From an uncultured Bacillota bacterium (GTDB lineage Bacteria > Sysuimicrobiota > Sysuimicrobiia > Sysuimicrobiales > Segetimicrobiaceae): a DNA stretch of 64,000 nucleotides. A program made the position numbers and the translations under genes. The stretch lies in contig CAWDRG010000022.1 in assembly GCA_963804645.1 (NCBI GenBank), positions 96,001 through 160,000 on the forward strand, read 5' to 3'. Every line of letters starts with the position of its first letter. Within the stretch, counting starts at the first letter, position 1. Positions 28,325 through 52,936 of the stretch are shown in pieces. The notes beneath the pieces were generated by a model. The model saw nothing but the letters and a program-made list of their open reading frames with translations. It ran no database searches and was not told the origin of the DNA.

Positions 28325-30709
28325 TTAGGCGAACGTCACCGTTTGAGCCTGCGTGGCTGTGCGGGCCGCGCCGTTGCGATCCAGGCTGGCAATGAGGGTG
28401 ATCACGTAAGCGCCAGCCTGGGTCGCGACGATGGTCCGGCTGCCGCTCAATGGAAGGCCCGAAGCCGCCGGCACGCTGCCCGTTGGCGGGCGAACCTCAA
28501 GGCTGACCGCAGTCCCCGGCGGGTTGCCGGCGCAGTTCCACGCCACGGTGCAGGAATGAGTCGATGACGACGGCGGGCTCGTGACAGCAAAGGAGGAAAT
28601 CACCGGCTGAACGATCTCGAGCCCGGTGCGGCGCGTGAAGTCGCTGCTAAATCCGTCCAATCGGCCGTTGTCGGTCAGCCGCGCGAGGACGGATCGCCAT
28701 TGCCGCAGCGGGCCGGTCGGGTTGCCCGGCGTGTCACCAAACCGAGACTCGAGGTCGGCCTGGGTGCTTTCATTCTGCTGCCCCCAGTGCAGGATACCTT
28801 TGATCGTAGGGTCGAGCGCGAGCTTGATCGCATAGTCGACGAACTGGCTGCTGCCCAGCTCATCCGCGAGACCTGCGCACTCGATCGCACAGGTCCGCGG
28901 GAAGGCTTCCTGCGCGATGGTGGCGCGTGACTGCCCGCAGAAACGCAGCGAAATGTATCCGGCAACCGAGAGGCCGGAGTCGACCTCCTGCTCGGTCTCG
29001 AACTGCAGCAGGCGGTTGACGAAGGCGAGCAAGTTGGGATCCGCGGCATCGAAGAACACTTCCATCGATCGCACATTCACGTCGCAACTAATGTCGGCGT
29101 AGTCGTGGCCGTCCATGACCGCGTAGCTGATGGCGGAGAAGGTTTGCGGCGACTGCTGGAATTGGAAGACCTGGGCGGCGATCGTCCTCCACAAGATGAG
29201 TCCGGCGGCCCGCTCCAACCGATTCGAGGATCCCAGAAGCATGGCGCGCAAGGTGTTCAGCGCCTGACCGACGGTGGATCCGTCGCGTCTCAAGGAATTG
29301 AGGAACGCGGTCAGGAGTCCCCGGATCCCATGCAAGAACGCCGAGAGCAACCCGAGGCCGAGGCGTTCGGAGATCGCACCCAGAGACCCGCTGGTTGGAA
29401 CATTCTTGTGGCTCAGGAAGTCGTCAATCTCCGTATAGATGCCGTTGACGATCCCGTCCATGAAGTTGGCATCGGCGCACGCGGCGTCAAAGACGTTGAA
29501 CGAGGTAATGCCAGCGTCATTTGGCGAGAAGGCGACACCATTGCCGGCGGCCGAAAACCGCGGGGCGTTCAGCAGGGGGTCGTTCGCCATAAGGATGTTG
29601 CCGACCCGCTCGGGCCGCCCCGCGGGATTCCCCGGACCGGGCCAGGTGACGGGGGGCATGGGCGACGACGGCACCGCCGACAGCGGCACCGTCCAATGCC
29701 GCGTGATGCCACAGACGTGCGTGGTGCCGTTCGTGCTCGGAATCGGATTCACCGCGATCTGCAGAAACCGTTGAGGAATCGATCCTCCAAACGGCTTCAC
29801 AAACAGCGCGGAATTCGGGTCGGCGATCAGGTGCTGCACGTTCTCCCACTCGTCGAGCAGGAGTTCCTGACGCAACCCGTACTGCGGCGTGACCTGGAGG
29901 ACGGCGGAATAGATGATGCCGAAGCGCCCGACCTGGACCATGGCCGCGCGCAAGACGTCATCATCATAGATGACGCCGAAGTTGCCTGGGCCACCGTACC
30001 TGGCGGCGCCGTAGAACGCGCGCAGTTTCCCCTCATCGGTCAAGGGCGCCCGATTGATATGGCCCCGTTCGATCCAATAGTGCTGGCCGCCGTCGACGAC
30101 CAGGTGCAGGGCGACGAGGGCATCCGCGAGCGGAGGGCGATCGAAATCGCCGCCGTGGGTTCCGGTGGAGAGCGCGCCTACGACGGTCTGGCCCCCGGCA
30201 CCACCGAGGGTGGAAAATCCCCACGATCCTTCAAAGGAGCTGTTGCTGAATCGCGATTTCATGAGGGCGCATAGGCTGTCGCTGTTCGCACCGTCGCCGA
30301 CGTCCAACTCCGCGTAGAGCTGATAGATCCGTTTTCCCGCCTCAACGTGGACATAGTACGCAGGTGCTGCCGTGGCCGCGGCGGATGTCGATGACGCCTG
30401 CAGCTCATCCAAGAACGTCTCCGACAAACACGCAGGCACGACGCAGTACAGGGTCCGTCCCATGGCTGAAATCCGGTTGTTCACATCATGGGTTTCAATG
30501 AAGGTATGATCGCTGATGGCGGCCTGGGAAAGAGCCCAGTGACTGCCCGCGGCATGGAGACGCTGCCCGGCCGGTCTTGTCGAACAGATGACGATCAGGT
30601 CTTCCAGCCCCTGTGGAAACAGGATCTCAGGCGCGTGCGGAATGAGCGGTGTCCCTGGCTTGTCGTGCTTGCGCGTCCAGGGCGCGAGCCGTAACTCAGG
30701 GATACCCAT
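28325..30709 (-). CDS. FAD-binding oxidoreductase (VAO/ALO-like) with C-terminal beta-rich domain
   Basis: AAGSHWALS, VHVEAG, GQTVVGALSTGTHG, GRFGII, ISLRF and LHWGQ motifs. Confidence 0.8.
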   Translation of the reverse strand: MGIPELRLAPWTRKHDKPGTPLIPHAPEILFPQGLEDLIVICSTRPAGQRLHAAGSHWALSQAAISDHTFIETHDVNNRISAMGRTLYCVVPACLSETFLDELQASSTSAAATAAPAYYVHVEAGKRIYQLYAELDVGDGANSDSLCALMKSRFSNSSFEGSWGFSTLGGAGGQTVVGALSTGTHGGDFDRPPLADALVALHLVVDGGQHYWIERGHINRAPLTDEGKLRAFYGAARYGGPGNFGVIYDDDVLRAAMVQVGRFGIIYSAVLQVTPQYGLRQELLLDEWENVQHLIADPNSALFVKPFGGSIPQRFLQIAVNPIPSTNGTTHVCGITRHWTVPLSAVPSSPMPPVTWPGPGNPAGRPERVGNILMANDPLLNAPRFSAAGNGVAFSPNDAGITSFNVFDAACADANFMDGIVNGIYTEIDDFLSHKNVPTSGSLGAISERLGLGLLSAFLHGIRGLLTAFLNSLRRDGSTVGQALNTLRAMLLGSSNRLERAAGLILWRTIAAQVFQFQQSPQTFSAISYAVMDGHDYADISCDVNVRSMEVFFDAADPNLLAFVNRLLQFETEQEVDSGLSVAGYISLRFCGQSRATIAQEAFPRTCAIECAGLADELGSSQFVDYAIKLALDPTIKGILHWGQQNESTQADLESRFGDTPGNPTGPLRQWRSVLARLTDNGRLDGFSSDFTRRTGLEIVQPVISSFAVTSPPSSSTHSCTVAWNCAGNPPGTAVSLEVRPPTGSVPAASGLPLSGSRTIVATQAGAYVITLIASLDRNGAARTATQAQTVTFA

Positions 30710-32811: not shown

Positions 32812-34271
32812 GCCTCTACCGGCTTTCGAGTGGGTACAGGTCCAGCCCTCCGCAGTGAAAGTAGATGGCCGTCTTGAAATTGTCGACGTTCCGGAAGCCG
32901 CGTGCGGTCTTCTTGACCCACTGGATCGTGGCGTTGACGGCCTCGAGCCCGGCATTCGTGATGCGGTGGCGATGGTAGGTCAGCACGTTCGGTAGGTGCC
33001 TGCGGATCAGCCACGCGACCTGCGCCATAGGCTTGAGCCGGCTGTGCGTGGCGCGCCAGAACCAGCGCGCGAAGAACGTCTCCGCGGACCGGCGGTAACT
33101 GTACTCCCAGAAATGTCGGAAGCGCTCCTTGAGTGCCCAGGCGCGTCCCACTTTCAGGTCATCGCCGAGCAAGAGCCGGAAGGTGCGCCGCTGTTCGGGC
33201 TTGAGCTCGCTCGGCCGGCGTAGCCAAAGGTATTTCGTCCCCGTCAACCGACGATCGGAGGAGCGGGACAACTCCCGGGGTTCGGTCCGCCGCACCTTGT
33301 CCACGGCCGTGTGGAGATGCTTCACGACATGGAACTTATCAAACACAATCTTGTCCACCCCGTCGGGCACGTGACTGGTGACCGAGTGTATGTAGGGCTC
33401 CCACATGTCCATCGCGACGGCGGCGATGCTCTCGCGCTGGGCCGGCGTGCAGGTGGGCCAGAAGGCGTCGAGGCTTTCCGCTTTGCGATCCTCGTTGACG
33501 AACAGCACCCGGTGGCGTTGCAGGTCCGCCACCACGGTCAAGTACCGGTGGCCTTTGGTGATTGCCTTCTCGTCCACGCCGACGTACGGGATCGGTTCCG
33601 CTGTCCGGCGCGCCAGCCCGCGCTTCACCGCCCGGCTCTTAATCCCCCACGCTTCATCCCAGGTGATCCGGAGTAGGGCCGCCGCGCCGGTGACCGAGCA
33701 TTCCCGCAGAAAGTCGATCGCCAACCGCTCAAACAACTGCGTGAACTGGCTGCCCGGCTCGGCCCACGGGATGGTGATCTGCTTGATCCCGTGCTGAGCG
33801 CACTGCACCCGCGGGACATCGGCTTCAATCCACGTGCGCAGCTGGAGCGTGTCCAGATGCCGCCACCGCCGCGGACGGCGATCATAGCCCGGCGACGGCG
33901 TCTGACATTCCGGACACGGAAACGGGCCCGGGCCCGCCTCGACTTTCACCGTCACTTGCTCGCCGGGGATATCCACCTCCACCCCGACCACCTTCCACGG
34001 TGGCGTGAGCCCCAGGATCGTAGCGTATAACTCGACATCGCGCACCAGACCAGCCTCCTCACGAAGCGTTCCCGCCCCGCGGGTCAGATTGCGCCTGCCG
34101 ACCATAGTGGCAGGGGTGCACCCGCCCCCGACGGCGGTCAAGAAGCGCGCAGCGCGCCGAAGGCCATGTTCTTGACGGCCGGCGGGGGTAGGTGTCTGGC
34201 TTTGAGCTGGTCGGCAGGCGTTGGTTTCTACTGGTCTACGCTATTTCACCCACACAACTTCCCGAAGAGCC
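32812..34271 (-). mobile_element. ISL3 family insertion sequence
   Basis: 8-bp TSD AATTAATT (32804-32811 and 34272-34279); imperfect terminal IRs G(C/G)CTCT...GTGGGT, 16/24 matching. Confidence 0.9.
32816..34045 (-). CDS. ISL3 transposase
   Basis: CPEC zinc finger, RWRHLD, GVDE, AMDMW.PY, FDKFHV and TNAGLEAVN motifs. Confidence 0.95.
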   Translation of the reverse strand: MRDVELYATILGLTPPWKVVGVEVDIPGEQVTVKVEAGPGPFPCPECQTPSPGYDRRPRRWRHLDTLQLRTWIEADVPRVQCAQHGIKQITIPWAEPGSQFTQLFERLAIDFLRECSVTGAAALLRITWDEAWGIKSRAVKRGLARRTAEPIPYVGVDEKAITKGHRYLTVVADLQRHRVLFVNEDRKAESLDAFWPTCTPAQRESIAAVAMDMWEPYIHSVTSHVPDGVDKIVFDKFHVVKHLHTAVDKVRRTEPRELSRSSDRRLTGTKYLWLRRPSELKPEQRRTFRLLLGDDLKVGRAWALKERFRHFWEYSYRRSAETFFARWFWRATHSRLKPMAQVAWLIRRHLPNVLTYHRHRITNAGLEAVNATIQWVKKTARGFRNVDNFKTAIYFHCGGLDLYPLESR

Positions 34272-35023: not shown

Positions 35024-35604
35024 CTCCGCACCTCCCGCCGCGCTCATGCGATATATGGTTCAACCTGCTGTGTCGAGGATCGTACCAGCATGCGCTGTAG
35101 CAACAACTCCCAGCAACAACCGGGCCACCAAGCATATTGCAACGCGTCTCATCATCGTTGATCACGTCTGGAATACGGCCTAGGAACTAAGTTTCGGCTC
35201 TACCGGGTTTCCCGTGGGTAAAAGTCGGCCGCTTCCTAATGGATGGAGGATCGCTCTCAGAAGCATTCGGCCTGCCGGTCATATTAGCCCTTTCCCGAGA
35301 CCAAGGCCGTCAACGGCTGCGCAGCGGGCCACAGGCTTTGCCGTTAAACGCCGCGGAAGCGGAAGAGTTGCTTTGCAAATGACCGGCAGGCGTCTTGTTT
35401 TCGTACCCATGTTCGCCTTTGCCCACACGATTGCCGGACGATCCGAAAAGGAAAGGGAGTCGCGGGTGGCAAGAGGTGCGCTGCCATGCGTAGTGTTTCT
35501 CAAAGCTTCGAGGCGAACCGGAAAGCATGTGTGATGTGATGATGCCCCACGGTGCCAAAAATCGTGCAAACGAGTGAACAACCTTGCAGATAAAACCTGA
35601 GGCG

Positions 35605-35740
35605 TGGTGGACCCGATCTCAAAGAATTCGAACCGTTGCGGAAGTCCCCATCCAGTGGCCCTGCTCGACACCGGTGCAGTACCAGTGTACCAGCAAATCG
35701 CCCCGACGGCGCTTCATCTGCGGCAACTTGGCCTCGCGCG
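35605..35740 (+). pseudogene. Putative detached C-terminal tail of a recombinase, frameshifted near 35655
   Basis: WWTRSQRIRTVAEVPIQ then VALLDTGAVPVYQQIAPTALHLRQLGL; in frame with GSNSLRWW at 39538 once the element ends are joined. Confidence 0.5.
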
Positions 35741-35939
35741 CGCAACTGAGCCCTACCCCTGCCTCGACAGTCGGTCTCGCCGGGTGTGCCACAGTGCGCT
35801 GAAGGACGTCACGTACGAGCGAAGGAGAGAAGAGGCGGTTACGAAGTAGGTCGACGATCGCCCGTTCCATGAACGCCCGACGCACCACCGACCCTCATTC
35901 GTCTTCAGCCCGTCCCCGAAATGGAATGCCGCCGGGCAG

Positions 35940-37442
35940 TTAGCACGAACGGGTATCCGGAGGTACCCGTCCCTGCGCGTTCTGCGCACCTCGCAGACAG
36001 CTCATTAGTGAGTCAAGCGTGCGGAGATGTTCGAGGTCATGAAGCACCAGCCCTATGAGCTGCGTCCGACCCTCCGCAGACAAGCGCCCACTGGTCATTT
36101 CTGTAAACTTGGCGATGAGGTCACCGTCCGTGAACTTCGCGTCGGGAGGGCCCCACATGTCGCCGTATGCAAAGTCCGTCCGGAGCACAAAGCTTCGCTG
36201 CCGGCTTCGAAGCTCGATTTCACATGGCGCCTTTTTGAATACATCCGCAATCGAGGACCCCGTCCACGGACGATAGTGCACTTCCGTCCCAGGTGGATTT
36301 CCTTCTACCCGAACCTTGGCCATCAAACGCTGAATTTCCGGGTCTCGACTCAGTGACAGGTCCACCCACTTGGGGCCTGGAATAATGCCTCTAAGTGCCA
36401 GCGCAACGGCAAATACCCCGCTCATATGGACGGCTTCTTGCGTGTCGGGCGGACCACCCTCGTTCGGGCGGTCCAGTCCGGCAGGCCCGGAAAACCGCAG
36501 CACAATCTCATCGATTTGCGTCACAGAGAGGTGTTCGGCATTTCGGAGCCTGGACAACAGCCACAGGTGTGGTCGATACAGATTGCATACCGGCTCTGGT
36601 TTATACGAGAGCCAGCGCATGCACTCCCACGTGTGCCCGAGATCTTCTAGCAGATACTTGGGTTCAAATCGGTGGGTATTCCACAGCGCCGGTAACCCAT
36701 TGGGATCGTCCAATACGCTTGTATCTCCCGTATACCCGCGGGCCGCGAGGAACGCCGCCGATACGCCGACCTGAGCTGTCCATCCCATTGGAGAATACTT
36801 GACCATGGAAAACGGACGAGTGCGTAACCATTTAAGCAGACTGGGGCCGGGGCTAAGGTATGTTGCCAGTCCCACCGCCTGTGTCATGCGTCCTACGTCA
36901 AGTCGCAACAATCTTCCAACCCCAACGGCCACGCCGAGCGCCCCATATCCATACCCAAACACTGGCCCGATCGCATACCGCGTCTTCAACCCGTCATGTC
37001 CCTCAAGCAAGGGGGCCATCGCCATCGTGAGACGCGCCGCGATCTCGTAACCGATCAAGACAGCCTCGACCACGGATCGACCACTGGCCTTGACGTACTC
37101 CCCCGCCGCGAGAATGCCTGCGAGCACGCTTGGAACATGGTGTGCAACGTTCAAAAATACGGCGTCTCCGTCTAGCGCGTTGGCAAGTTCCGCATTGGCA
37201 AACGCTGCGCGGTCGACAGCGGTTTGAGACGTCATCCCAACCACGGTCGCCTGCGGGGCTCCGGACATATCCTCTACGAATCCTGCAGCCAACCGCCCCT
37301 TTTCCGTCGCCCACCCACCGACCATGCACCCCAGGGTATCGAGAATGAGTCGTTTGACCTCGTAAACCAAGGCGTCCGATAGTCCAAGTTCCTGCTCAAG
37401 TGATCTGGCAGCAATCGTCTGTATTAGGTTCACCATATGCAC
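35940..37442 (-). CDS. MmgE/PrpD family protein
   Basis: LILDTLGC, AAFANAELANALD.D, GYEIAARL, LAARGYTG and YKPEP.C motifs. Confidence 0.9.
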   Translation of the reverse strand: MHMVNLIQTIAARSLEQELGLSDALVYEVKRLILDTLGCMVGGWATEKGRLAAGFVEDMSGAPQATVVGMTSQTAVDRAAFANAELANALDGDAVFLNVAHHVPSVLAGILAAGEYVKASGRSVVEAVLIGYEIAARLTMAMAPLLEGHDGLKTRYAIGPVFGYGYGALGVAVGVGRLLRLDVGRMTQAVGLATYLSPGPSLLKWLRTRPFSMVKYSPMGWTAQVGVSAAFLAARGYTGDTSVLDDPNGLPALWNTHRFEPKYLLEDLGHTWECMRWLSYKPEPVCNLYRPHLWLLSRLRNAEHLSVTQIDEIVLRFSGPAGLDRPNEGGPPDTQEAVHMSGVFAVALALRGIIPGPKWVDLSLSRDPEIQRLMAKVRVEGNPPGTEVHYRPWTGSSIADVFKKAPCEIELRSRQRSFVLRTDFAYGDMWGPPDAKFTDGDLIAKFTEMTSGRLSAEGRTQLIGLVLHDLEHLRTLDSLMSCLRGAQNAQGRVPPDTRSC

Positions 37443-37501
37443 ACCTCGTGGTTCGATAAGCCCGGCGTCACGGGCTCCGACGATAGAGTGCAGATCTTAG
37501 C

Positions 37502-37615
37502 TTATCGCGCACGCGGATCAAGGGAGTCACGAAGTGCGTCCCCGAACGAGGCGACCACGACAACTATCAGGGGTAGAAAGATTCCCGGCATCGTCGAAAT
37601 CCACCGTACGCTATC
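37502..37615 (-). pseudogene. C-terminal fragment of a DppC/OppC-type ABC permease
   Basis: WISTMPGIF...FGDALRDSLDPR with no upstream remainder. Confidence 0.7.
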
Positions 37616-37893
37616 CAAGGAGTTGCGGCCCTGACTAATTGTGACTCCCAGTGAAGGGGTCGATGAAGCGGATTTGCGGGGATGAGCTCGTAGTCGACCG
37701 CGGCGGACGATCAGAAAGGCGACCAGGTTCAGGATCGTCTGCTCGGATAGGATTGGCCGGTCGAGATTCGGATTCTCCCACGTAGTAGACAGCGACGCGA
37801 ACATGCTGCAATGCGCTTGTCCTCCCGGCTGGTCACGGTGCGTCCTCGTCTCGCGGCTAACTCGTCCGCACCTCCACGCTCGTCGACCGGGTT

Positions 37894-38781
37894 CTATGCT
37901 CGCTCTGCGCTCGGGGTACCGGTCCGAGGCCGGCGGACCAGAGCGCCGCCCGCAGGCCACAGCGCGTCGCGCAGTTCGGGGCGCTGCCATTGGGTCAGCA
38001 CCCCAGCCTTGGCGCCATTGCGCCGCTGCGAGTCCACCCGGTCATCCTGGGCGCGCAGGTCGCGGATGCGGTCCAGGCCAATCTCTACGAGAAACAGGCC
38101 CGGCTGCGTGGTCTCAAAGATAATCTCCTCGGGGGCGGCGACCATTGCCAGTCCCCGTTGCTCCCGTCCAAAAAGGTTCTGGGTCGTTGCCACGATGGCC
38201 AGGTTTTCGATTGCGCGCGCCCAGATGAGACAGCGCCACGAGGCCCACAGCTGCTGCTTATCGGTCCCCGCCGGTAGGAAAATCATTTCAGCGCCCCGCA
38301 GCGCCAAGGCGCGGCTGACTTCCGGCATATACACCTCGCTGCACATGGCGAGGCCGATCGTCCCGTACTCGGTATCGAACACCGGGAATTCGTCCGCGGC
38401 GACGTAGTCGAAATCCCAATCGGTCCCGCCACGGTAGATCCAGGGTCCGGGCGGATAGGTCCGCCGGTATCGCCCCGGCGACCCGCCGGTCGGGCGCGCC
38501 AACAAGAGCACGTTGTACGCCCGTCGCGTGCCGTCGTTAAACGGCTCGAGCGTTCCGAACACGACATACACGCCGTAGCGCGCGGCGGCCTCTGTCATCT
38601 GCGGTATCGGATCAAACAGCGTCGGCACCCGCCACGGCCCGGGGTAGGTCTCCGGAAACAAGACAACCTGGGCGCCCTGTTGCGCCGCTGTCTCGATGTG
38701 CCGCACAGCGGCCGCCACGTTGCGTTCGTCGTTCGGTGGCCGGTGCGCTAGTGGCTGTACTATCGCAAGCGTGCAATTCAT
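37894..38781 (-). CDS. Carbon-nitrogen hydrolase family protein
   Basis: LFPETYPG, YRRT (Arg at the usual Lys position), MCSEVYMPE and ARAIEN motifs. Confidence 0.85.
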   Translation of the reverse strand: MNCTLAIVQPLAHRPPNDERNVAAAVRHIETAAQQGAQVVLFPETYPGPWRVPTLFDPIPQMTEAAARYGVYVVFGTLEPFNDGTRRAYNVLLLARPTGGSPGRYRRTYPPGPWIYRGGTDWDFDYVAADEFPVFDTEYGTIGLAMCSEVYMPEVSRALALRGAEMIFLPAGTDKQQLWASWRCLIWARAIENLAIVATTQNLFGREQRGLAMVAAPEEIIFETTQPGLFLVEIGLDRIRDLRAQDDRVDSQRRNGAKAGVLTQWQRPELRDALWPAGGALVRRPRTGTPSAERA

Positions 38782-39555
38782 CCCGTCACTCCACGCAAAG
38801 CAGCTTGGCTACCCAACGCCTTGGCTTCTGTATCTGGGCCGAGCCTGGGGTTCCGGACGAACGTCAGCGGCACCCCCATGTTCCCGCAGTCGATTCCGCA
38901 CCACGCACTGAGTGGTGATGGTCGCGGTCCGCGTACCGGTCGGGGTCGTTGACAGCTCCCCGTGCGGGAGACGCGTCTGGGCCACGGAACGCCGCCCCCA
39001 GCGGTCGTAGGGCACGGGTTCGTCCTGGGGGTGGGGATTCCTCCCGGCCGGACGCCTTCCGTCAGTACGCCGCCTCCAGGGCCCGTGTGGCGGCTCTGGA
39101 GTTCCGCTTGATCGCGCGGACCCACTCGTAGATCGCGTTGCGGAATCTCCACCGAGGCTCATGGAGCTCCATGTCCACCGCCAACCCATGCGTTCGGCGT
39201 CGCGGTCTGCATGGCGGCGCGCTGGATGCTCTGCAGCCCGTATCAAGAAGCGAGGATGGCCGAATGACCGGCGCGGGCATGGACAGAAGTGAAGCGCCAG
39301 TGCTGCCAGTCCGCTGACGCGTTGCGCATGTCCCCGGGGATGGGATCCAGCGCGGAAGCCACCTCCCCAACGCACGGTCATCCCAAGAACCGTGGAAGGC
39401 ACCGGTCGAGGTCTGAGCACGCCGGTTCTATCATGAACCCGTGGGAATGCCGGCCGACACGCTTTCACAGGTCGCGTTGTCCGTCAATATCCTGACGCCC
39501 ATTGGGCACGCCGGGCCAAGACGAAGTGCGGGGAGGCGGTTCGAATTCTTTGCGC

Positions 39556-39583
39556 TGGTGGAGGCGGCGGGAATCGAACCCGC
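39556..39583 (-). repeat. Copy of the tmRNA 3' end (att)
   Basis: 28/28 identical to 55264-55291. Confidence 0.95.
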
Positions 39584-39589
39584 GGCCAG

Positions 39590-39626
39590 TTGACATCATG
39601 ATGCCGATCACGATAGCATCATGATG
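39590..39626 (+). promoter_or_regulatory. Sigma70-type promoter with two palindromic operators; probably leaderless
   Basis: TTGACA (39590)-N18-TAGCAT (39614); CATCATGATG at 39594 and 39617; GTG start at 39626 without an RBS. Confidence 0.7.
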
Positions 39627-39871
39627 TGCGAACGACACTTACGCTAGACGATGACGTTGCGGTCAGGGTCAAGGCCGAGGCCCGAAAGTCAGGCCGTTCT
39701 TTCAAGGAGGTCGTGAACAGTCTCCTCCGTCTCGGGCTGACAAAGAAGCATGAGAGCGGCACGATCGACCGTTTCGTCGTGCGAACCCGGCCACTCGGCC
39801 GCAGACCGGGACTCAACTACGACAAGATCAGTGAACTGATCGAGCATGTCGAAGGACCTCTCCATCGATGA
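39626..39871 (+). CDS. vapB: RHH antitoxin (VapB-like)
   Basis: MRTTLTLDDDV...GRSFKEVVN.LLR.GL. Confidence 0.88.
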   Translation: MRTTLTLDDDVAVRVKAEARKSGRSFKEVVNSLLRLGLTKKHESGTIDRFVVRTRPLGRRPGLNYDKISELIEHVEGPLHR

Positions 39872-40299
39872 TTCTGATCGATGCCAACGTCCTCTTGTAC
39901 GCGTATAACCCGTCTGCGCAACAACACGGACGCGCGCGGGACTGGCTGCAGGACACGCTGAGCAAGCCTGAGCCTACGGGCCTCGCCTGGATCACGATCC
40001 TGGCGTTCCTTCGGTTGACAACAAACCCGCGAGTTTTTGAGACCCCGTTCCTTCCAGAGGAAGCTATTCCACTCGTTTCATCGTGGCTTGCGAGAACGAA
40101 CGTCATCGTATTGCAGCCAGGTGAGCATCACTGGCAGATTTTTGCCAATCTCCTCACGGCTACGCGCGCGCGCGGCGCGCTCGTGATGGATGCGCATCTC
40201 GCCGCACTTGCAATAGAGCACGGCGCCAGCCTCGGAACGACAGACAACGATTTTGCGCGGTTTCCAGGTCTTCGTGTGATCAACCCGCTAGAAGAGTAG
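39868..40299 (+). CDS. vapC: VapC PIN toxin (mycobacterial type)
   Basis: MILIDANVLLYA, FLRLTTNPR, DAHLAALAIEHG and D.DFARFPGL motifs. Confidence 0.93.
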   Translation: MILIDANVLLYAYNPSAQQHGRARDWLQDTLSKPEPTGLAWITILAFLRLTTNPRVFETPFLPEEAIPLVSSWLARTNVIVLQPGEHHWQIFANLLTATRARGALVMDAHLAALAIEHGASLGTTDNDFARFPGLRVINPLEE

Positions 40300-40332
40300 C
40301 CCGTCCGCGGTAGGATGGTAAACTTGACTTCT

Positions 40333-40360
40333 TGGTGGAGGCGGCGGGAATCGAACCCGC
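40333..40360 (-). repeat. Copy of the tmRNA 3' end (att)
   Basis: 28/28 identical to 55264-55291. Confidence 0.95.
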
Positions 40361-40441
40361 CGTCTTTCTGGACCGCCGTATCCGAGGCGTTTTCAGGAGA
40401 GAGCCGGTTTGCCGCACACGATGAGCAGTCGCGCGCACCGA

Positions 40442-40981
40442 TCATACGCCCGGCGCCTTGTCTTTGGGGAACTCCTCGCGGCGCCAGACGAACCCGAGGT
40501 AGTCCAAGTTCTGTGCTTCGACGCCAAGTTGTCGCAACATCGCCATCACCTGCGCGCGGTGGTGCGTTTCGTGTAGGAGCATCTGAGTCGCGAGGTCAGC
40601 CTTGGTCATGGTCCACACGATGACCATGTCGCCTTCCTCGATGCGGCGAGTCACGGTCCGGGTCCAGTCAGAGATTCCAGCCAGCGTCGCCCGTGTTTCT
40701 CTAGCCTGCGTCGTCCAAAATCTCTCGAGATCGGCAAACGTCGGCAAATTCGTCTCACTAACGGGGAAGGTTGCGGGCAGCGGCGGAGCCGGCACCGGTT
40801 CTTCGCGCAACCGCTTTCCGTAGACCAGTTCTGCCCTGACGATCTCAAGCAACGTGGCGCGTAGCGTGCCGAGCCCGAACGGAAACCGCTGCGTATACTG
40901 CGCCTGGCTAAGTGGGCGGACCCAATTGAAGAGCCGTTGGCGGGCTTGCGTCAACACGTCGTACACACGAGGGTATTCCAC
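40442..40981 (-). CDS. DinB/YfiT family protein
   Basis: GTLRATL and HETHHRAQVMAMLRQLG motifs; GGAGG RBS before GTG. Confidence 0.85.
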   Translation of the reverse strand: MEYPRVYDVLTQARQRLFNWVRPLSQAQYTQRFPFGLGTLRATLLEIVRAELVYGKRLREEPVPAPPLPATFPVSETNLPTFADLERFWTTQARETRATLAGISDWTRTVTRRIEEGDMVIVWTMTKADLATQMLLHETHHRAQVMAMLRQLGVEAQNLDYLGFVWRREEFPKDKAPGV

Positions 40982-41197
40982 GGCGTCACCTCCGTAGCCC
41001 GATACTTCTTTCACCTGCGCGGCCTCGGAAACCTATGACGCCCCTGCGTTTGAGACGTCCCACAAGGGCGAGAGCGCGCTTGCGATTCATTCCTTTTAGC
41101 AACATGCGCGCCGCGTCGGGATCGTACCAAGGATAACGCCCCCATTCTTCGAACAAACGAACCACGATTCGTTCGACATCCGCGAGGAGAACAGAGC

Positions 41198-41938
41198 ATG
41201 AAATGGCCGCTGTGGCTGAAACGGGCGACCATGGCCCTTGTGTGTGGAGGCGGGGTGTTTCTAGGGGCAGGCGCGGCACAGGCCATCCCGGTGACCTTGA
41301 CCGGAACCGCGTGGCTTAACCAACCCGCCTCAGTGTCCATGAATGCGTCGCTTCCCACTCCCGCCTTCCCGCCGGATCTGACGTTTACGGTGACAACGAG
41401 CAACGATCTCTTCTTCAGCTCGTGCTTGACTCTTTCGCCCAGTGGGGTATGTACGGCGCCGACGAATGCGTATACCGTCGGCACTTGGTTGAACACCCCG
41501 CCCGTCGTCGGTACGCAGGTCCTCGGGAGCTTTGCTAGCCCCAGCGGGTTGGGCGTCGCGAACGCCCTGGCCAATACCGTGGACAACTCGTACTGGGACT
41601 TTCAGGGGATCGTAAACGTGACGAGCGGCGAGGTGTTCACGGTGACCCACGACGACGGCGCGACCTTCCTCGTCAATGGCGTTGCTATCCCAGGCATCAG
41701 CCCGAACCCGACGGGACCAATCCAGGACATCATCACGTATACTGGCCCGACCCTCGCCAACGCGTTGTTCGAGATGGTCTACAGTGAGTGCTGCACCGCT
41801 CCGGCGGTATTCGAAACCGACTTCCCTACCTGTGGGTGTATCATCACTCCAGTTCCTGAACCCGGCAGTCTGGCGTTGCTCGGCACCGGCGCCTTTGGGC
41901 TCATCGCATTCGCCCGGAGACGTTTCCGAGTACTGTAG
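41198..41938 (+). CDS. PEP-CTERM sorting domain protein
   Basis: Signal peptide; THDDG motif; C-terminal VPEPGSLALLGTG, TM helix and RRR tail. Confidence 0.9.
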   Translation: MKWPLWLKRATMALVCGGGVFLGAGAAQAIPVTLTGTAWLNQPASVSMNASLPTPAFPPDLTFTVTTSNDLFFSSCLTLSPSGVCTAPTNAYTVGTWLNTPPVVGTQVLGSFASPSGLGVANALANTVDNSYWDFQGIVNVTSGEVFTVTHDDGATFLVNGVAIPGISPNPTGPIQDIITYTGPTLANALFEMVYSECCTAPAVFETDFPTCGCIITPVPEPGSLALLGTGAFGLIAFARRRFRVL

Positions 41939-42057
41939 TCGCCAGAAGTGGTCGCTGAGATGGGTCGCCGCACGTGACGTTCTTCTCCCCGGCGATCAGC
42001 GGCGAGGACTATTCTGTTACCCGTCAGTATACGCTCCAATCGTATTGCTCTTCGTCG

Positions 42058-42411
42058 TCAGTTACTGTCGGTCTCCTTTTGATGTGAACCGGACGCGGCC
42101 TCCTCGAGGTCTTCAAACTGCGTGATCTCGTAGTCTCCCTCAGGGAACTCCGCGATGATTCGCAATCGACCATGCATGGCTTCCACATAACTGCGAAGGG
42201 TGCTGATATAGGCGTCGGTGCGATGTTCTAACTTCGAGATTTCACCTTGCGAGGTATTCATATCCTTTGCGAGTGTTTGCTGCGAGAGTGTACGCGCACG
42301 CCGCAACTCTTGAAGAGGCATGGCGGCGAGAATAGCCTCTGCACGCTCCTTTGCGCGAACCTGGCGATCTAGCGGCATTTTCCCACGTAGACGAGCGAAC
42401 TTTTTAGCCAT
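42058..42411 (-). CDS. higA: XRE-HTH antitoxin (HigA-like)
   Basis: LQELRRARTLSQ..LA...SQ.EISKLE.RTD..ISTLRSYVEAM.GRL. Confidence 0.88.
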   Translation of the reverse strand: MAKKFARLRGKMPLDRQVRAKERAEAILAAMPLQELRRARTLSQQTLAKDMNTSQGEISKLEHRTDAYISTLRSYVEAMHGRLRIIAEFPEGDYEITQFEDLEEAASGSHQKETDSN

Positions 42412-42781
42412 GTCGCTGCTCCTCTCGGCCTATCTCCGCTAAGTGTTCATCATAAAGACGATCGGCGACTGGGATATACGAGCTGTAAAACTCTTCATCT
42501 GTAAACCCCTTCTTGTCGGCCCCGATAAACAAGATCGCAGTCCGACGTGGATCGAAAGCGTACAGGATTCGAATGGGATGTCCCCGGCTCTGAACGATGC
42601 GCTCGCGCATGTTCCGATGCCGGGAGCTTTTGACAGTATCCGCGTGAGGCCGCATCAATGCCGGACCACGAGCCTCAAGCAAGTGTACAAACACGTCAAT
42701 GTCCTCTTGAGTCTCGGCATCTAAAGTGGTCCACCACTCTTCAAACTGGTCTGTGTATTCGACCTCCCACGGACCGACCAT
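42404..42781 (-). CDS. higB: RelE/HigB-like toxin (gp49 type)
   Basis: WEVEYTDQFEEWW, GP.L.RPHADT and RILYAFDPRRTAIL.IG.DK motifs; toxin-first gene order. Confidence 0.9.
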   Translation of the reverse strand: MVGPWEVEYTDQFEEWWTTLDAETQEDIDVFVHLLEARGPALMRPHADTVKSSRHRNMRERIVQSRGHPIRILYAFDPRRTAILFIGADKKGFTDEEFYSSYIPVADRLYDEHLAEIGREEQRHG

Positions 42782-42787
42782 GGCTGA

Positions 42788-42819
42788 AGTATAGGGGGGG
42801 GAGGGAATTATTCTGTCAA
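42788..42819 (-). promoter_or_regulatory. higBA promoter: TTGACA-N20-TATACT with a C8 tract in the spacer
   Basis: + strand AGTATA 42788-42793, G8 run 42794-42801, TGTCAA 42814-42819; ATG 6 nt after the -10 box. Confidence 0.6.
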
Positions 42820-43012
42820 GCCTATGTCGCGGTGGTGCGAGGCGGGACCAAGGAGCCCCCACCCTAGCCCTTGTGGAATAAGGCTTAGCGATGCCTCGCG
42901 GTACGTGGGCGTGGGGGGGACCGCACGAACGCGGGAAGCACCGCACAGTGCGGGCACCGGCATCAACGTTCAGCCCACCGCAGCGTCGTGCAGTCGGATG
43001 CAGCCGAGTACG

Positions 43013-43040
43013 TGGTGGAGGCGGCGCTAATCGAACCCGC
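43013..43040 (-). repeat. Copy of the tmRNA 3' end (att)
   Basis: 26/28 identical to 55264-55291. Confidence 0.9.
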
Positions 43041-43129
43041 GGCCTGTGCTCCTCTTCGACACTTTGCCAGCGGATCTCGATGCGGACCCGCGTCGGGCCA
43101 ATATTGTACGTGGCAAGCGGGCGCTGATG

Positions 43130-43152
43130 AGTATATACTAAGTGTGTATACA
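43130..43152 (+). promoter_or_regulatory. Paired palindromes; probable vapBC promoter/operator now separated from its genes by IS256
   Basis: AGTATATACT (43130-43139) and TGTATACA (43145-43152), lying just upstream of the vapB RBS once the IS is removed. Confidence 0.55.
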
Positions 43153-43173
43153 ATGTCATTGGTGTCGGAGGAA

Positions 43174-44542
43174 GAGCTCTAGTCAAGAGATGTGGAAATT
43201 GCATCAAGCGGCGCCCTTCCTTTTCTTCGCTGACTCGAGCGCTTCCACGCCATTGACGAACTGAACGCCCTCGAGCACCTTGGCCACCAAGTGCGGTGCG
43301 TCGATTCGTCGCCACCGCTGCTCTGCACGGCGGATAAGTTGGAAGACGAGGTACAATCCAGTCTGCGCCTTACGCATGCGGCGTGTCGCGCGCGTGCGCA
43401 GTCGCACCGGATCAAAGACCGACTCGATCGGATTGGACGTCCGAAGACTCTTCCAGTGCTCCCGCGGGAACTCATAGTACGTGAGCAGCTCGGCCTGATG
43501 ATCCCGGAGGGAAGCCACCGCACGCGGGTAATCTCGCTCGAAGCGGAGCGCGAATTTCGTGATCCGGGCTTCGGCCTCGTCCCGCGTGGGCGCGGTGTAG
43601 ACGTCCCGCACGAGCGTGCGGGCCTCCGGCTGCAGGCGCTGCGGTAGCTTATCGAGCACGTTGAGCATCTTGTGACACCAGCAGAGTTGATGCCGCGCCG
43701 TCGGATACACCTCCCCGACCGCCGCCCAGAGTCCCAGGCCGCCATCCCCAATGAACACGCGCACGGTTTTGAGGCCACGCCGGCGCAGATCCCGCAACAC
43801 ATCGCGCCAGCTCTCGCGAGACTCGCGATAGCCTTCGACCATTGCCAGGAGCTCTTTCTGGCCGTCCTCCGTCACGCCGATGATGATCAGCACGGCCGTC
43901 TTCTCGTCGGCCGGCCCGGCTTTCAAGTAGAGCCCGTCGGCCCAACAATAAACGTAGCGCGCGTCGAGGCGTCGGTGGGTCCACGTCTCATAGTCCGCCT
44001 GCCAGCTGGCTTTCAAGCGGACGATCGACGTCGGACTCAGGGGCGCGGCCTCTCCCAGAACCGTGCGGAGGGCCGGCTCAAAGTCGCCGGTGGCCAGTCC
44101 TTGCAGATAGAGCTCGGGTAACAGGGCGCGGACGGCGTCGCTCGAGCGCTGATACCGCGGCAGCACGTGGGAGTGAAACGCTTCCGTGGTGTCGCTGACC
44201 CGTGGGGGCCGAACCTCGAGCGTCCCGCAACCCACCGCGATCTTGCGCGGCTTCCCGGCGCCATTCCGGTACCCGCGCCGCCGTGCCCCGCCGCGCTCAT
44301 AGCGAGCCCGGCCGAGGAATTCCTCCACTTCTTGCTCTAACGCGCCCGCCAGCATGCGCTGCGCGCCCTCACGCGCGAGGACGTCCAACGTCGCGCGTAC
44401 TTCCTCCTTGTCCAACCCCCCTTGTGGCTGATATCCTGGCATTGGCGTACTCCTTTCCCCTCCCCAGCAAGGGAGGTTCCGATGTGGGTGGATCTCGGAA
44501 AGGGTACGCCACTTGAATTTCCACACCCTTTGACATTAGCTC
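43174..44542 (-). mobile_element. IS256 family insertion sequence
   Basis: 27-bp imperfect IRs (GAGCT...GTCAA...TGTGGAAATT); 8-bp TSD CGGAGGAA (43166-43173 and 44543-44550). Confidence 0.93.
43204..44442 (-). CDS. IS256 transposase
   Basis: GYRNG, LYLQGL.TGD, WADG.Y.K, IGDG, C..HK and RTSNPIES motifs. Confidence 0.95.
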   Translation of the reverse strand: MPGYQPQGGLDKEEVRATLDVLAREGAQRMLAGALEQEVEEFLGRARYERGGARRRGYRNGAGKPRKIAVGCGTLEVRPPRVSDTTEAFHSHVLPRYQRSSDAVRALLPELYLQGLATGDFEPALRTVLGEAAPLSPTSIVRLKASWQADYETWTHRRLDARYVYCWADGLYLKAGPADEKTAVLIIIGVTEDGQKELLAMVEGYRESRESWRDVLRDLRRRGLKTVRVFIGDGGLGLWAAVGEVYPTARHQLCWCHKMLNVLDKLPQRLQPEARTLVRDVYTAPTRDEAEARITKFALRFERDYPRAVASLRDHQAELLTYYEFPREHWKSLRTSNPIESVFDPVRLRTRATRRMRKAQTGLYLVFQLIRRAEQRWRRIDAPHLVAKVLEGVQFVNGVEALESAKKRKGAA

Positions 44543-44558
44543 CGGAGGAAATCCTGGA

Positions 44559-44789
44559 ATGGCCAAGACACGGGTATTCCAGAGTGGAAATTCGCAGGCC
44601 GTACGTCTCCCAAAGCAATTCCAGTTTGACGTAGATGAAGTCGAGATCTTCCGGCGAGGCGATGAAGTTGTTCTCCGGAAGGTTCCTGACAATCTGACCG
44701 GGGCGTTCACCCTGCTCACAGGTCTGTCCAGAGACTTCATGGCCGGTGGCCGGAGTCAGCCATCTACTCAGAAGCGCCGCGGTCTCTGA
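44559..44789 (+). CDS. vapB: VapB antitoxin (AbrB/MazE fold)
   Basis: VFQSGNSQAVRLPK.F.F. Confidence 0.93.
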   Translation: MAKTRVFQSGNSQAVRLPKQFQFDVDEVEIFRRGDEVVLRKVPDNLTGAFTLLTGLSRDFMAGGRSQPSTQKRRGL

Positions 44790-45193
44790 TGCGATACCTA
44801 ATCGATACGGATACATGCATCGCAGTCGCCAGACAAAGGCCGATGCACGTTCTCGAGCGGCTCCGGCGACTGAGGCCGGGAGATGTCGGGATGTCGGTCG
44901 TGACATACTTGGAGCTGTGCTATGGCGCGCTAAAAAGTCAGGCCCCGAGCGCGAACTTCGAAAAACTAGCGACACTGGCGGGCTTGATTCCGCCGCTCCC
45001 GTTGGAGGCCAATACTGCATCGCACTACGCGCGTATCCGAGTAAAGCTCGAACGCAGCGGACGGCGTATTGGAGGATATGACATGCTTATTGCTGCCCAC
45101 GCGTTAACCTTACATTTGATCGTGATAACAAACAACGTCGCCGAGTTCTCACGAATTCAAGGACTTCGGTTGGAGAATTGGCTGGCACAGTAG
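44789..45193 (+). CDS. vapC: VapC PIN toxin
   Basis: YLIDTDTCI, EL.YGA.KS, IGGYDMLIAAHA and TNN..EFSRI.GL..ENW motifs. Confidence 0.93.
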   Translation: MRYLIDTDTCIAVARQRPMHVLERLRRLRPGDVGMSVVTYLELCYGALKSQAPSANFEKLATLAGLIPPLPLEANTASHYARIRVKLERSGRRIGGYDMLIAAHALTLHLIVITNNVAEFSRIQGLRLENWLAQ

Positions 45194-45218
45194 ATAAGTC
45201 AGTTCGAACTCGTTGCGT

Positions 45219-45244
45219 TGGTGGAGGCGGCGGGAATCGAAACC
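45219..45244 (-). repeat. Copy of the tmRNA 3' end (att), interrupted by IS256
   Basis: 27/28 identical after removing the IS and one TSD copy; sequence resumes at 46630. Confidence 0.9.
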
Positions 45245-46621: not shown

Positions 46622-46798
46622 TCGAAACCGCGACCCCTGCTCTATCGCCTATCCCTGTCTACCTGCGCATGCGTCTGTAGAGCTTGCTGCGCAATGCGTT
46701 CACCCTCTTCTTCGACCACTGTTCATTCGTCCAATTCCGGCTATGGCTGGCAAGTGGTGTGACAATAGCGTGACAGCCACATCAGATCCTCCGGCCAC

Positions 46799-47040
46799 CT
46801 AGTGTCGCTGTGATCGCCCCAAACGGTATCCGACGGCTTGAATGGCCCCCGGTGAGGGGATGAGCGATGGAATCGGCGCGGATACCTCCCGACGCGCATC
46901 CGCGACGGTCGCATGGGCCTCCTGCCACGGAGCGAGTGCGTTCCGCATCCTCTGCACCACGTCGACGAACTCGGACGCGATTGACACGTTGACAGTGCCT
47001 GCTCCCTTCAACTCGCCGAGCAACCGGCCAAGATTCTAAG
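46799..47040 (-). pseudogene. C-terminal remnant of a gene typical of small integrative/satellite elements
   Basis: LLGELKGAGTVNVSIASEFVDVVQRMRNALAPWQEAHATVADA; next to GTGACA direct repeats (46759, 46770) and an att copy. Confidence 0.4.
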
Positions 47041-49615: not shown

Positions 49616-49616
49616 G

Positions 49617-50444: not shown

Positions 50445-50445
50445 C

Positions 50446-52865: not shown

Positions 52866-52936
52866 AGGAGACCCGACGACCATTGGGACGCCGTTCTCGA
52901 TGTGCGGCGCGGGCCCTGCGATCGGTGAGGGCGGCG

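Follow-up and report, generated by a model that had tools for sequence, protein, structure and literature searches.

The window, by which we mean the whole 64-kb stretch of DNA that was analysed, carried a live tmRNA gene on the minus strand at 55264-55614 (ARAGORN; Rfam RF00023, 152.7 bits), with the tag ADNQLAYAA. The 26-nt end of this gene occurred six times in the window, compared to none expected from shuffles, and five displaced tmRNA 3' fragments were located downstream of the live gene. The leftmost (39556-39584) adjoined the right arm of the segment described below. Others lay on the plus strand at 40333-40360, at the boundary of a later small island with an RHH-PIN pair, at 43013-43041 (two mismatches), and at 54143-54170 (one mismatch). 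The family was represented at 45202-45245 (plus strand) by another P arm of independent origin, the 14-mer with two differences; it was joined to another tmRNA 3' fragment, and its recombinase gene was reduced to ...SSNSLRWW. The remaining islands of the array were bounded by 28-29-nt tmRNA repeats. Pfam identified transposase genes nearby, of the ISL3 type at 32816-34141 and of the Mutator family at 43204-44526 and 45349-46593. The live tmRNA gene is the target of the entire island array, and later islands at this gene have displaced the attR described below by 15.7 kb.

A repeat search of the segment at 35605-39584 returned a perfect inverted repeat with 16-nt arms at 35620-35635 and 39537-39552 (100% complementary), the sole perfect pair of at least 15 nt within 35500-39700. 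Across the 64 kb, the 14-mer core of the arm was matched without mismatch at only two places, one per strand. TGGTGGA was directly repeated at 35605-35611 and 39556-39562, outside the arms, and the 29 nt from 39556 onward matched the live tmRNA gene at its 3' terminus. We read the left junction (35605-35634, plus strand) as attL, in which the host flank meets the core and an element-derived P' arm (35612-35634) whose geometry recurs at 11 other sites, and the right junction (39538-39584, plus strand) as attR, composed of a P arm (39538-39555), the core, and a B' arm provided by the displaced 29-nt tmRNA fragment. TCGAAC began at +17 from the central GA in the P' arm and at +12 in the B' arm. 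The crossover would fall at the GA of TGGTGGA, which is antisense to the alanine-type acceptor end ...UCCACCA. The first-pass annotation had placed both arms and the shared TGGTGGA at these positions, where we found them, with the repeat measuring 16 nt. It had also given the reciprocal product as an intact tmRNA end; this product does join the tmRNA 3' end (the 29-nt fragment) to the left flank, but not a whole tmRNA gene.

Relics of a large serine recombinase (LSR) gene were found at both junctions. On the right, 39427-39561 (plus strand) retained the last ~45 codons, ending in GSNSLRWW and interrupted by an in-frame stop at ~39493; this relic matched residues 502-562 of an intact LSR from another genome (locus L009) by tblastn (E 4e-7), and its frame translated as ...GGGSNSLRWW, then RRRESNPR. 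On the left, 35605-35744 (plus strand) retained the recombinase tail from the linker to the start of a helix-turn-helix (HTH), with a frameshift near 35650, and ended before the HTH helices. Its frame translated as WWTRSQRIRTVAEVPIQ and, past the frameshift, as ...VALLDTGAVPVYQQIAPTALHLRQLGL (tblastn). When compared to the long form of L040 by tblastn, 35605-35652 was 87.5% identical and 35646-35744 was 60.6% identical, and 35605-35744 was the single match to the tail in its own genome. Translation and tblastn bore out both frame readings of the first-pass annotation, as well as its view that the recombinase body had been deleted. The rest of the element body (35635-39426) held cargo only and no recombinase: MmgE/PrpD (35940-37442) and CN_hydrolase (37894-38781), both on the minus strand and assigned by Pfam, and two ORFs without a Pfam family. 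Its GC content was 58-66%, versus ~70-72% in the flanking core. The segment has the properties of a CIME, in that attL and attR are kept, the recombinase is absent inside, and it lies in an array bounded by target-gene fragments. The same genome had a third arm next to tRNA-Ala(CGC), where the LSR was in the same frame but frameshifted, and a search of this genome for an intact family member found none. The system is dead in this genome, and both gene halves in the window are pseudogene relics. In contigs of public runs, one related strain lacked 35492-39450, with end points ~110 nt off the att cores; neither the predicted empty site nor the circle joint was present in such contigs. Among 10 tmRNA flanks in relatives, none had the left flank of the window, and all 10 differed from one another.

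A scan for the arm pattern in 185,579 species genomes yielded 38 loci from many phyla. A complete tmRNA gene adjoined the arm in 20 of the 38 and tRNA-Ala(CGC) in one; nine had a tmRNA 3' fragment alone, five were un-recombined P-P' junctions, and one was unclear. Two were rejected as chance matches located inside a fumarate-reductase-type flavoprotein gene. In the 20 loci with a complete tmRNA, the recombinase gene converged on ssrA and ran through att with its 3' end, reading ...SNSLRWW into ssrA antisense (RRRESNP...). In six of these loci (L009, L014, L019, L026, L020, and L033) the ORF was full-length, with 546-560 residues as far as WW, and the frame ended GSNSLRWW at the crossover. The L009 protein contained PF00239 (2e-28), PF07508 (1.4e-24), and PF13408 (3.4e-6), and L033 had the same trio of Resolvase, Recombinase, and Zn_ribbon_recom, an order of which the window keeps the last ~45 codons alone. 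L009 matched phrog_95 'integrase' at 3e-83, and CcrB weakly. A MerR-like ORF (~175-200 aa), which is not a resolvase, was located upstream of all six intact LSRs; Pfam, applied to the L009 copy, gave MerR_1 (E 3.4e-4), and homologues of this copy were present at all six. It was followed by a small ORF (73-97 aa) of two sequence types, one in L009, L014, L019, and L026 and the other in L020 and L033. The tail half was found on the same contig and strand in G002, 21-24 kb upstream, and on other contigs in G005 and G037; the attL of these islands with an intact LSR carries the tail. In G001 the other half was ~70 kb from the intact LSR, its tail cut after ~22 residues. A tyrosine integrase gene lay beside attL at L043. 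Recombinase genes running into ssrA, with their other half at the far island end, were what the first-pass annotation had predicted, and these loci bear it out, with the truncated half in G001. The observation of a split serine-integrase site is confirmed, and the relatives support assigning it to an LSR family. This family is widespread and barely described.

Counted from the centre, TCGAAC started at +17 in 11 P' arms and at +12 in 26 tmRNA or tRNA arms, which puts the motif of the tmRNA side 5 bp further inward than that of the element side; it was also at +17 in 50 of 50 P arms, where the search pattern itself imposes this position. A 5-bp shift of the zinc-ribbon motif between attB- and attP-type half-sites is described for LI integrase (PMC3783163). 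Natural P-P' junctions (L006, L037, L038, L040, L080, and others) formed inverted repeats about the central GA, with TCGAAC at +17 in either direction. In most loci they were identical to the tmRNA side over TGGTGGA only, giving a shared core of 6-7 bp, and the variant L035 shared 11 bp. The host-side B arm varied between loci.

That the 3.95-kb segment is instead a transposon or insertion sequence, with terminal inverted repeats and TGGTGGA as a 7-bp target duplication, is almost certainly wrong: a perfect inverted repeat with a direct repeat outside does flank it and transposases (ISL3, Mutator-family) are common nearby, but Pfam found no transposase within it, the inverted repeats start 8 bp (left) and 3 bp (right) inward of the direct repeat and not at the ends, and in 21 other species the arm adjoins a tmRNA or tRNA-Ala 3' end with a serine recombinase reading in. 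An ordinary tyrosine-integrase island at ssrA, in which the inverted repeat would be incidental, is very improbable. The 28-29-nt tmRNA repeats of the other array islands resemble those of tyrosine-integrase islands, and the gene beside attL at L043 would fit. However, the two ends here share just 7 bp and no tmRNA fragment of at least 20 bp, each end carries the relic of one half of an LSR gene, and the 5-bp motif shift is a hallmark of LSRs.

Beyond the crossover, un-recombined junctions and far island ends encoded a conserved linker and a three-helix HTH of ~70 aa in total. In line with the first-pass annotation, the LSR frame ran uninterrupted through the un-recombined sites into this tail, and did so at every P-P' junction having a whole tail. 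It had no stops in 10 of 10 tails, versus 0-4 in other frames. In a profile search, the tail matched 1448 cluster representatives at E<=1e-3, of which 602 also passed E<=1e-10. The dN/dS of the tail was 0.09-0.37 in nine of 12 pairs, and 0.73-0.77 in one trio. AlphaFold2 predicted tail helices at residues 34-47, 52-59, and 63-79 with pLDDT >90. The best Foldseek rows were DNA-binding HTH domains, none below E 0.28, and Pfam HTH_23 matched at E 5.5e-5, below its cut-off. In a model of the complex, the tail linker was placed on the C-terminal strands of the LSR and on the Zn-ribbon end and coiled-coil start, with a score of 0.69 versus 0.00 for the best of three controls. Of 157 solved complexes, 116 attained this mark, as did two of 215 mismatched pairs. 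The partner pLDDT was at least 75 and the run-to-run contact agreement at least 73%. In the AlphaFold2 model of one whole long form, pLDDT was <50 over residues 371-415, the docked linker included. The known directionality factors have their binding sites close to the base of the coiled coil (PMC11722253).

No intact long form was present among five genome and 12 metagenome P-P' junctions, the latter including several duplicates; the upstream recombinase was truncated or frameshifted in all. The longest long forms in databases had 553, 456, 444, and 406 aa, all without the N-terminus, and none of the best 150 tail matches exceeded 330 aa. The library for this search held one protein per 50% cluster, and a long form could therefore hide behind a short one. 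Gene callers gave proteins of 68-130 aa in most of these best 150 matches, and the tail HTH is of a general regulator type, both of which would suit a separate small HTH regulator gene, its frame continuity across attP being a by-product of the palindromic site. We consider such a gene improbable. Conservation begins exactly at the crossover (WW-TRTQRIRT), the preceding N-termini differ in every attL-type protein (nine of the 15 proteins examined), and there is no conserved start codon within the element. The frame continuity with the LSR and the pairing of the tail linker with LSR strands in the complex model also argue against it.

Together, these results make it highly probable that 35605-39584 is a recombinase-less remnant of an LSR element at the tmRNA 3' end, whose attP splits the recombinase gene. 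By the translated junctions, attP lies inside this gene, with the P arm encoding GSNSLRWW, the last residues that both forms share, and the P' arm TRTQRIRT, then the linker and HTH, so that integration splits the gene. The frames are those of an att-split gene, the free-type frame crossing P-P' into the tail and the attR frame entering tmRNA antisense. An integrated copy would thereby produce a short form, its end read from tmRNA antisense (RRRESNPRP...), and the long, HTH-bearing form could come only from an intact attP, in the free circle or at the inner junction of a tandem array. Since a new host could make the long form only, the long form would be the integrating enzyme. Since the donor chromosome could make the short form only, the short form would be the one to excise, if the element's own enzyme does so. 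Given the purifying selection on the tail, we infer that it has a part in the reaction on the integration side or in the control of that reaction. Its role may be to bias directionality by docking near the coiled-coil base, a tentative proposal from the complex model to which we give appreciably less than an even chance; alternatively, it may serve as plain extra DNA binding or in autoregulation. The candidate excision factor is the MerR-like gene that is conserved immediately upstream of the intact recombinases. Taken further, the tail swap could be a self-resetting control of directionality, with each reaction rewriting the enzyme for the opposite one, which we regard as rather unlikely. Integration would delete the tail and turn the gene into the short form, whose coiled coil, freed from the tail linker, would thus be set for excision, and the short form would excise, alone or with its MerR-like neighbour.

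The split may also be real yet neutral, with the 550-residue body performing both reactions and the HTH tail being dispensable or regulating element genes only; we place this only somewhat below an even chance. The short form retains all three canonical LSR domains, G001 has an intact LSR beside a broken tail, the att-encoded peptide and linker were of low confidence in AlphaFold2, and the MerR-like gene could provide directionality in the usual way. However, the tail was under purifying selection in most pairs, it is kept across the 602 clusters of the stricter profile search, and the complex model, unlike its controls, sets the tail linker at the coiled-coil base.

Serine integrases are prized as simple, one-directional enzymes, and how their direction is reset in nature is an active question. 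We know of no case in which this reset is not achieved by a separate factor acting at the coiled-coil base. A standard reference (Islander, 2015) reportedly stated that serine integrases targeting tmRNA or tRNA genes were not known; the present family shows that they can target tmRNA and tRNA-Ala genes. It is also a natural example of an enzyme whose own C-terminus is changed by integration, in many phyla and with a conserved HTH across the crossover. Almost all bacteria have the target, the alanine-type acceptor end and T-arm of tmRNA. The conservation of its core across bacteria would make such enzymes candidates for integrating DNA where no landing site has been engineered. If the self-resetting reading were true, many phyla would have in this family a natural integration system that works without a landing pad. 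The window alone is of modest importance, as a dead relic that helps to explain how, and when, the five-step array of islands at ssrA arose.

Among known systems, CIMEs and tandem accretion arrays resemble this locus in having a recombinase-less segment with attL and attR among islands bounded by target-gene fragments; unlike them, the sites here are of the serine-recombinase type and no family helper recombinase is left in the genome. LI/A118, phiC31, Bxb1, and SPbeta SprA share the order of Resolvase, Recombinase, and Zn-ribbon with coiled coil. As in canonical phage serine integrases, attP is a ~50-bp inverted repeat around a central dinucleotide, and the distal half-site motif of attB is shifted 5 bp inward relative to that of attP. 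In those phages, however, attP lies outside int, the protein is unchanged by integration, and directionality requires a separate factor, whereas here attP is inside the gene. Genes split by their own att are found in the SSV1-type integrases of archaeal viruses and the repressor of the mycobacteriophages BPs and Brujita, where, as here, attP is in a reading frame and the free and integrated products differ. SSV1 and BPs are tyrosine-recombinase systems; the SSV1 integrase is broken apart and the BPs repressor loses a degradation tag, whereas the present serine integrase would keep its catalytic and core DNA-binding domains and lose the C-terminal HTH only. In engineered integrase-RDF fusions, a C-terminal addition at the coiled-coil base can reverse the preferred direction (PMC11722253). 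Unlike such man-made fusions, the addition in the present family is a natural HTH that integration itself would remove.

The closest precedent is DsiB, a serine recombinase specific for ssrA that is carried by genomic islands of Dehalococcoides (McMurdie et al. 2011, PMC3146451). By that description, DsiB is likewise a CcrB-like LSR with tandem islands stacked downstream of ssrA, and its gene converges on ssrA with a 3' end that 'always overlaps' att and no in-island stop (PMC3146451). The DsiB sites are given there as a 20-bp repeat with a T-loop insertion point (PMC3146451). In the present family the core is 6-7 bp, 7 bp in the window, centred on the GA of the acceptor/CCA end. The DsiB module is described with a second small serine recombinase, DsiA, whereas the upstream gene here is MerR-like (by Pfam on the L009 copy). 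The passages on DsiB describe no far-side tail domain (PMC3146451), and the present family has one. With its defined long and short forms, this family makes the idea raised for DsiB in 2011 directly testable.

Two half-sites delimited the element (35605-39584), attL at 35605-35634 and attR at 39538-39584, with a shared core, TGGTGGA. The arms at 35620-35635 and 39537-39552 were 100% complementary over 16 nt and constituted the sole perfect inverted pair of at least 15 nt within 35500-39700; the arm 14-mer had exactly two perfect matches in the window, one per strand. Since TGGTGGA was located 3 nt after the right arm and 8 nt before the left arm, the centre of symmetry fell on its last two bases, GA. 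From 39556 onward the sequence matched the tmRNA 3' end over 29 nt. The first-pass annotation had proposed the attP of a large serine recombinase (LSR), split inside a reading frame at a tmRNA end, so that integration would swap the protein C-terminus. Its observation of split arms was confirmed by the arm positions, the 14-mer matches, the placement of TGGTGGA and the 29-nt tmRNA match; the reading frames at both junctions were as it had given them, and its structural reading was supported. The copy in the window is a fossil. Only about 45 codons of the recombinase were left, and the part of the frame beyond the crossover (the tail) was represented by 35605-35652 and a frameshifted stretch at 35646-35744, being lost ahead of its helix-turn-helix (HTH). 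The segment 35612-39555 still lay between complete attL and attR half-sites and could in principle be excised in trans by a related enzyme; no enzyme able to do so was found in the own genome.

The live tmRNA gene was located at 55264-55614 on the minus strand (ARAGORN; Rfam RF00023, 152.7 bits), and Rfam gave no other match in the window. The last 26 nt of the tmRNA, in plus-strand reading, occurred six times in the window (0 expected from shuffles), at 39556, 40333, 43013, 45219 and 54143 and in the gene itself. These repeated 3' ends indicated that a series of islands lies left of the gene, with a displaced tmRNA 3' end bounding each one. In the outer regions of the window GC content was about 70-72%, falling to 55-68% from roughly 15 to 55 kb. 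The stretch 39584-55263 was made up of four further segments with tmRNA 3' fragments as their boundaries, and their cargo (39.6-55.2 kb) comprised an RHH-PIN pair (39626-40299), DinB with a PEP-CTERM protein, a Gp49-like gene, two Mutator-family transposases (43204-44526 and 45349-46593), a sugar ABC transporter with a sulfatase (47262-52865) and an AbiEii-like ORF. No recombinase domain or integrase was found among the larger ORFs scanned in these islands. Because attR carries the leftmost tmRNA fragment, no recognisable insertion in the array is older than this element; islands that came afterwards entered at the live tmRNA gene and shifted attR 15.7 kb away from it. A second arm of the same family, hereafter SNSLRWW, was found at 45202-45225, likewise joined to a tmRNA fragment; this second element arrived later, and all of it except nine codons is lost.

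Two other sequences in the array were observed. Left of the tmRNA fragment at 43013, the stretch 42985-43012 (...cgtgcagtcggatg...) resembled the sequence just downstream of the live tmRNA at three loci of other genomes (L070, L071 and L075), and may represent the terminus of some other common island family or an ancient native flank. A conserved element, about 190 nt long (35258-35454), separated attL from a short-chain dehydrogenase gene; three relatives carried copies of it, 73-81% identical, on unrelated contigs, and two of these shared a genome. RNAalifold folded five sequences into one long nested hairpin in which 2 of the 54 pairs showed compensatory changes, and no Rfam match was obtained at E<=1; the element is a candidate structured RNA or mobile-element end.

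The empty site was sought by comparing the left flank with 30 relatives and the tmRNA plus right flank with 20, and by reading 10 tmRNA downstream flanks. None of the 10 flanks read was the window's left flank, and all of them differed from one another. Eight public metagenome runs contained part of the stretch, as contigs rather than raw reads, and four were compared; neither a circle joint nor an empty site at the att cores was present in the contigs of these four runs, absence from contigs being no proof. In a related strain (runs X1 and X3; about 94% identity on the left side), 35491 was joined to 39451 with 9 other letters between, and one contig continued from 39506 to 39580. These joins indicated a strain without nearly the whole segment, and also without the P arm (the half-site encoding the recombinase end), the core and the tmRNA fragment. 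The end points were about 110 nt from the att cores.

Elsewhere in the own genome, the family had left further traces. A degenerate arm pattern matched three sites, two of them in the window. The third, on contig 15 (C15:441399-442441, read as L003 and L004), adjoined the 3' end of a tRNA-Ala(CGC), and immediately upstream of this arm was a twice-frameshifted LSR, with a frame ending GGSNSFRWW, that corresponded to residues 202-553 of a full-length relative; this relic also retained a scrap of a MerR-like upstream gene. The alanine-type acceptor end, antisense TGGTGGAG, is common to tmRNA and tRNA-Ala, which accounts for the two targets. Further relics of the same recombinase family were located at C15:452872-453311, C15:361649-361855 and C17:319293-319460. 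The own genome contained fragments only, with no intact SNSLRWW-family copy, and no second tail copy was found in it. Two intact serine recombinases were also present, distant from the SNSLRWW family (33% identity).

We then scanned one genome per species (185,579 species) with the arm pattern and obtained 38 loci. By record titles these were MAGs of Acidobacteriota, Myxococcota, Actinomycetota, Krumholzibacteriota, Latescibacterota, Dormiibacterota, Methylomirabilota, Tectomicrobia, Spirochaetes, Desulfomonilaceae and others. The arm adjoined a complete tmRNA gene at 20 loci, a complete tRNA-Ala(CGC) at 1, a tmRNA 3' fragment only (displaced sites, as in the window) at 9, and the P' arm, the half-site encoding the start of the tail (un-recombined type), at 5; one neighbour was unassigned. 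The remaining two (L021 and L022) were chance matches inside a fumarate-reductase-type flavoprotein gene and were dropped, as was G000:C1:105126 in the own genome, an unrelated LuxR-type response regulator. Six loci had a full-length frame up to WW (546-560 residues), and a seventh ORF of the family ran off its contig. Resolvase, Recombinase and Zn_ribbon_recom domains were detected at L009 and L033; L009 matched PHROG 95 'integrase' at 3e-83, and its best NCBIfam match, CcrB, was far below cut-off. The shortened frames at the remaining loci beside live tmRNA genes indicated that decay is common in the family. In G014, from another genus of the window organism's family, the P arm and recombinase end were found at a live tmRNA.

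The arm pattern had 0 matches in IMG/VR viral contigs, giving no sign that these elements are phages, and in a plasmid collection the best matches to a long form (recombinase, linker and HTH tail) were 26-34% identical, none covering the tail. The only intact island read through, in G002 (L091/L092, C2:25913-50108; about 24 kb; attL near C2:25913, attR near C2:50085), encoded a NACHT protein, an AAA_21/AAA_15 ATPase, an Eco57I/MmeI-type methylase, DEAD-box helicases with an MZB domain, and IstB. This cargo is defence-like; phage genes and conjugation genes were absent from it. In Polyangiaceae (L044/L046, G002:C2:~25800-26000 and ~28880-29000; L029:540-660) we also observed a repeat unit, about 90-110 nt long and containing a hairpin, that separated a 21-nt tmRNA-end fragment from the next att core or live tmRNA; this unit may be the scar of a different element crossing over in the T-loop.

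The geometry of the sites was examined across these loci. Eleven P' arms had TCGAAC starting at +17 from the central GA, and 26 tmRNA or tRNA arms had it at +12; in the P arm the search pattern itself imposes +17. For LI integrase, PMC3783163 places the zinc-ribbon motif at half-site positions 16-24 in attP and 11-19 in attB, and describes this 5-bp shift as setting the coiled-coil trajectory. The shift of TCGAAC is the same, in exact agreement, and the sites behave like serine-integrase sites. Because the element provides TGGTG left of the crossover, the tmRNA retains its CCA end, and ARAGORN found whole tmRNA genes at 20 of 20 tmRNA junctions. The host-side flank (B arm) was unconserved from locus to locus, so it must be chiefly the tmRNA half that is recognised.

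At un-recombined junctions the frame remained open past WW into TRTQRIRT (P' arm), a linker and an HTH, ending a few residues past the third helix. Beyond the P' arm the recombinase frame had 0 stops in 10 of 10 tails (0-4 in the other two frames). Nine of 12 tail pairs had dN/dS of 0.09-0.37, and a trio of decayed copies had 0.73-0.77. The tail was found on the attL side, in the same orientation, at the far end of islands with an intact recombinase (G002, G005 and G037): G002 had two copies that shared the contig and strand of the recombinase and lay 21 and 24 kb upstream of it, and in G005 and G037 the tails were on contigs other than the recombinase's. The tail of G001 was about 70 kb away and truncated. 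A profile of nine tails, searched against 1.84 billion proteins, matched 1448 cluster representatives at E<=1e-3, of which 602 reached E<=1e-10; the best 150 matches were mostly small ORFs starting in unrelated flank just before WW, the attL type. AlphaFold2 (78 sequences) predicted three helices (34-47, 52-59 and 63-79) with pLDDT above 90, the att-encoded peptide and linker being of low confidence. The best Foldseek matches were DNA-binding HTH domains (ParB/Spo0J, KorB, NarL, sigma region 4, IstA, Sin), none below E 0.28, and Pfam HTH_23 matched below its cut-off. At L043 (G005:C86), an older island's tyrosine integrase gene was located directly before attL and ran stop-free into the LSR tail, so that gene callers report a tyrosine-integrase-HTH chimera of 330 aa (P0130).

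A circle entering a new cell can produce the long form only, which makes the long form the one that integrates. A chromosomal copy beside tmRNA can produce only the short form, its end read from tmRNA antisense, and it is the short form that excises, if the element excises itself. Both assignments follow from gene structure alone. Selection on the tail indicates that it matters in the circle state, in a way that we can only infer, and the tail swap may serve as the directionality switch that the first-pass annotation proposed. When the C-terminal half of the recombinase was modelled together with the tail, the complex scored 0.69 and the best of three controls 0.00; 116 of 157 solved complexes attained that mark, as did 2 of 215 mismatched pairs. 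Partner pLDDT did not fall below 75, and the runs shared at least 73% of contacts. The contacts were made by the linker (tail residues 17-29), not the HTH, and the modelled linker packed on two recombinase C-terminal strands and on both the zinc-ribbon end and the coiled-coil start. Known directionality factors are described in PMC11722253 as binding near the coiled-coil base. AlphaFold2 on the whole long form (23 rows) gave a mean pLDDT of 71, with the linker below 50 in this shallow alignment, and neither confirms nor contradicts the docking, which is for that reason a lead and not a result. A MerR-like gene (about 175-200 aa) was directly upstream of 6 of 6 intact recombinase genes and is the obvious candidate for a conventional excision (directionality) factor; the L009 copy (L009:1034-1627) matched MerR_1 HTH weakly (E 3.4e-4). 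It was followed by a small ORF of 73-97 aa, of which the L009 copy (L009:1646-1936) had no family match, and which fell into two sequence types (L009/L014/L019/L026 and L020/L033) without match to each other.

An intact long form was not found by two word-index searches and one exhaustive profile search of protein collections, the longest long forms there having 553, 456, 444 and 406 residues, all with the N-terminus missing. At all P-P' junctions (5 in genomes and 12 in metagenomes, including several duplicates) the recombinase upstream was truncated or frameshifted. At L040 the order was an attL-type site, a P-P' junction and a further tail, and at L037 a second integration module was present 8.5 kb after the junction; these layouts indicated that P-P' junctions are inner seams of tandem arrays. 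Decay of the distal, older array member may be why no intact long form was seen. Assemblies seldom recover free circles. One full-length but distant serine recombinase (P0183, 687 aa) had two C-terminal HTH repeats of the tail's type, neither split by a site, matched the tail profile at E 2.4e-6, and is possibly an ancestor-like unsplit form.

In full-text literature outside subscription journals, no description of the SNSLRWW family or its HTH tail was found. The details seen across the family are new, its hosts are broadly distributed, and the picture lends itself to direct tests. A statement in the Islander paper (PMC4383910) holds that serine integrases were not known to target tRNA genes. 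The closest precedent for the split LSR family is DsiB, the CcrB-like serine recombinase of the Dehalococcoides ssrA islands (McMurdie et al. 2011, PMC3146451). In that paper the insertion is placed in the T-loop with a 20-bp repeat, a small second serine recombinase is reported for the module, and no tail was found. The 3' end of dsiB is described there as always lying over the att site, and its authors speculated that the gene may be complete on the circle only.
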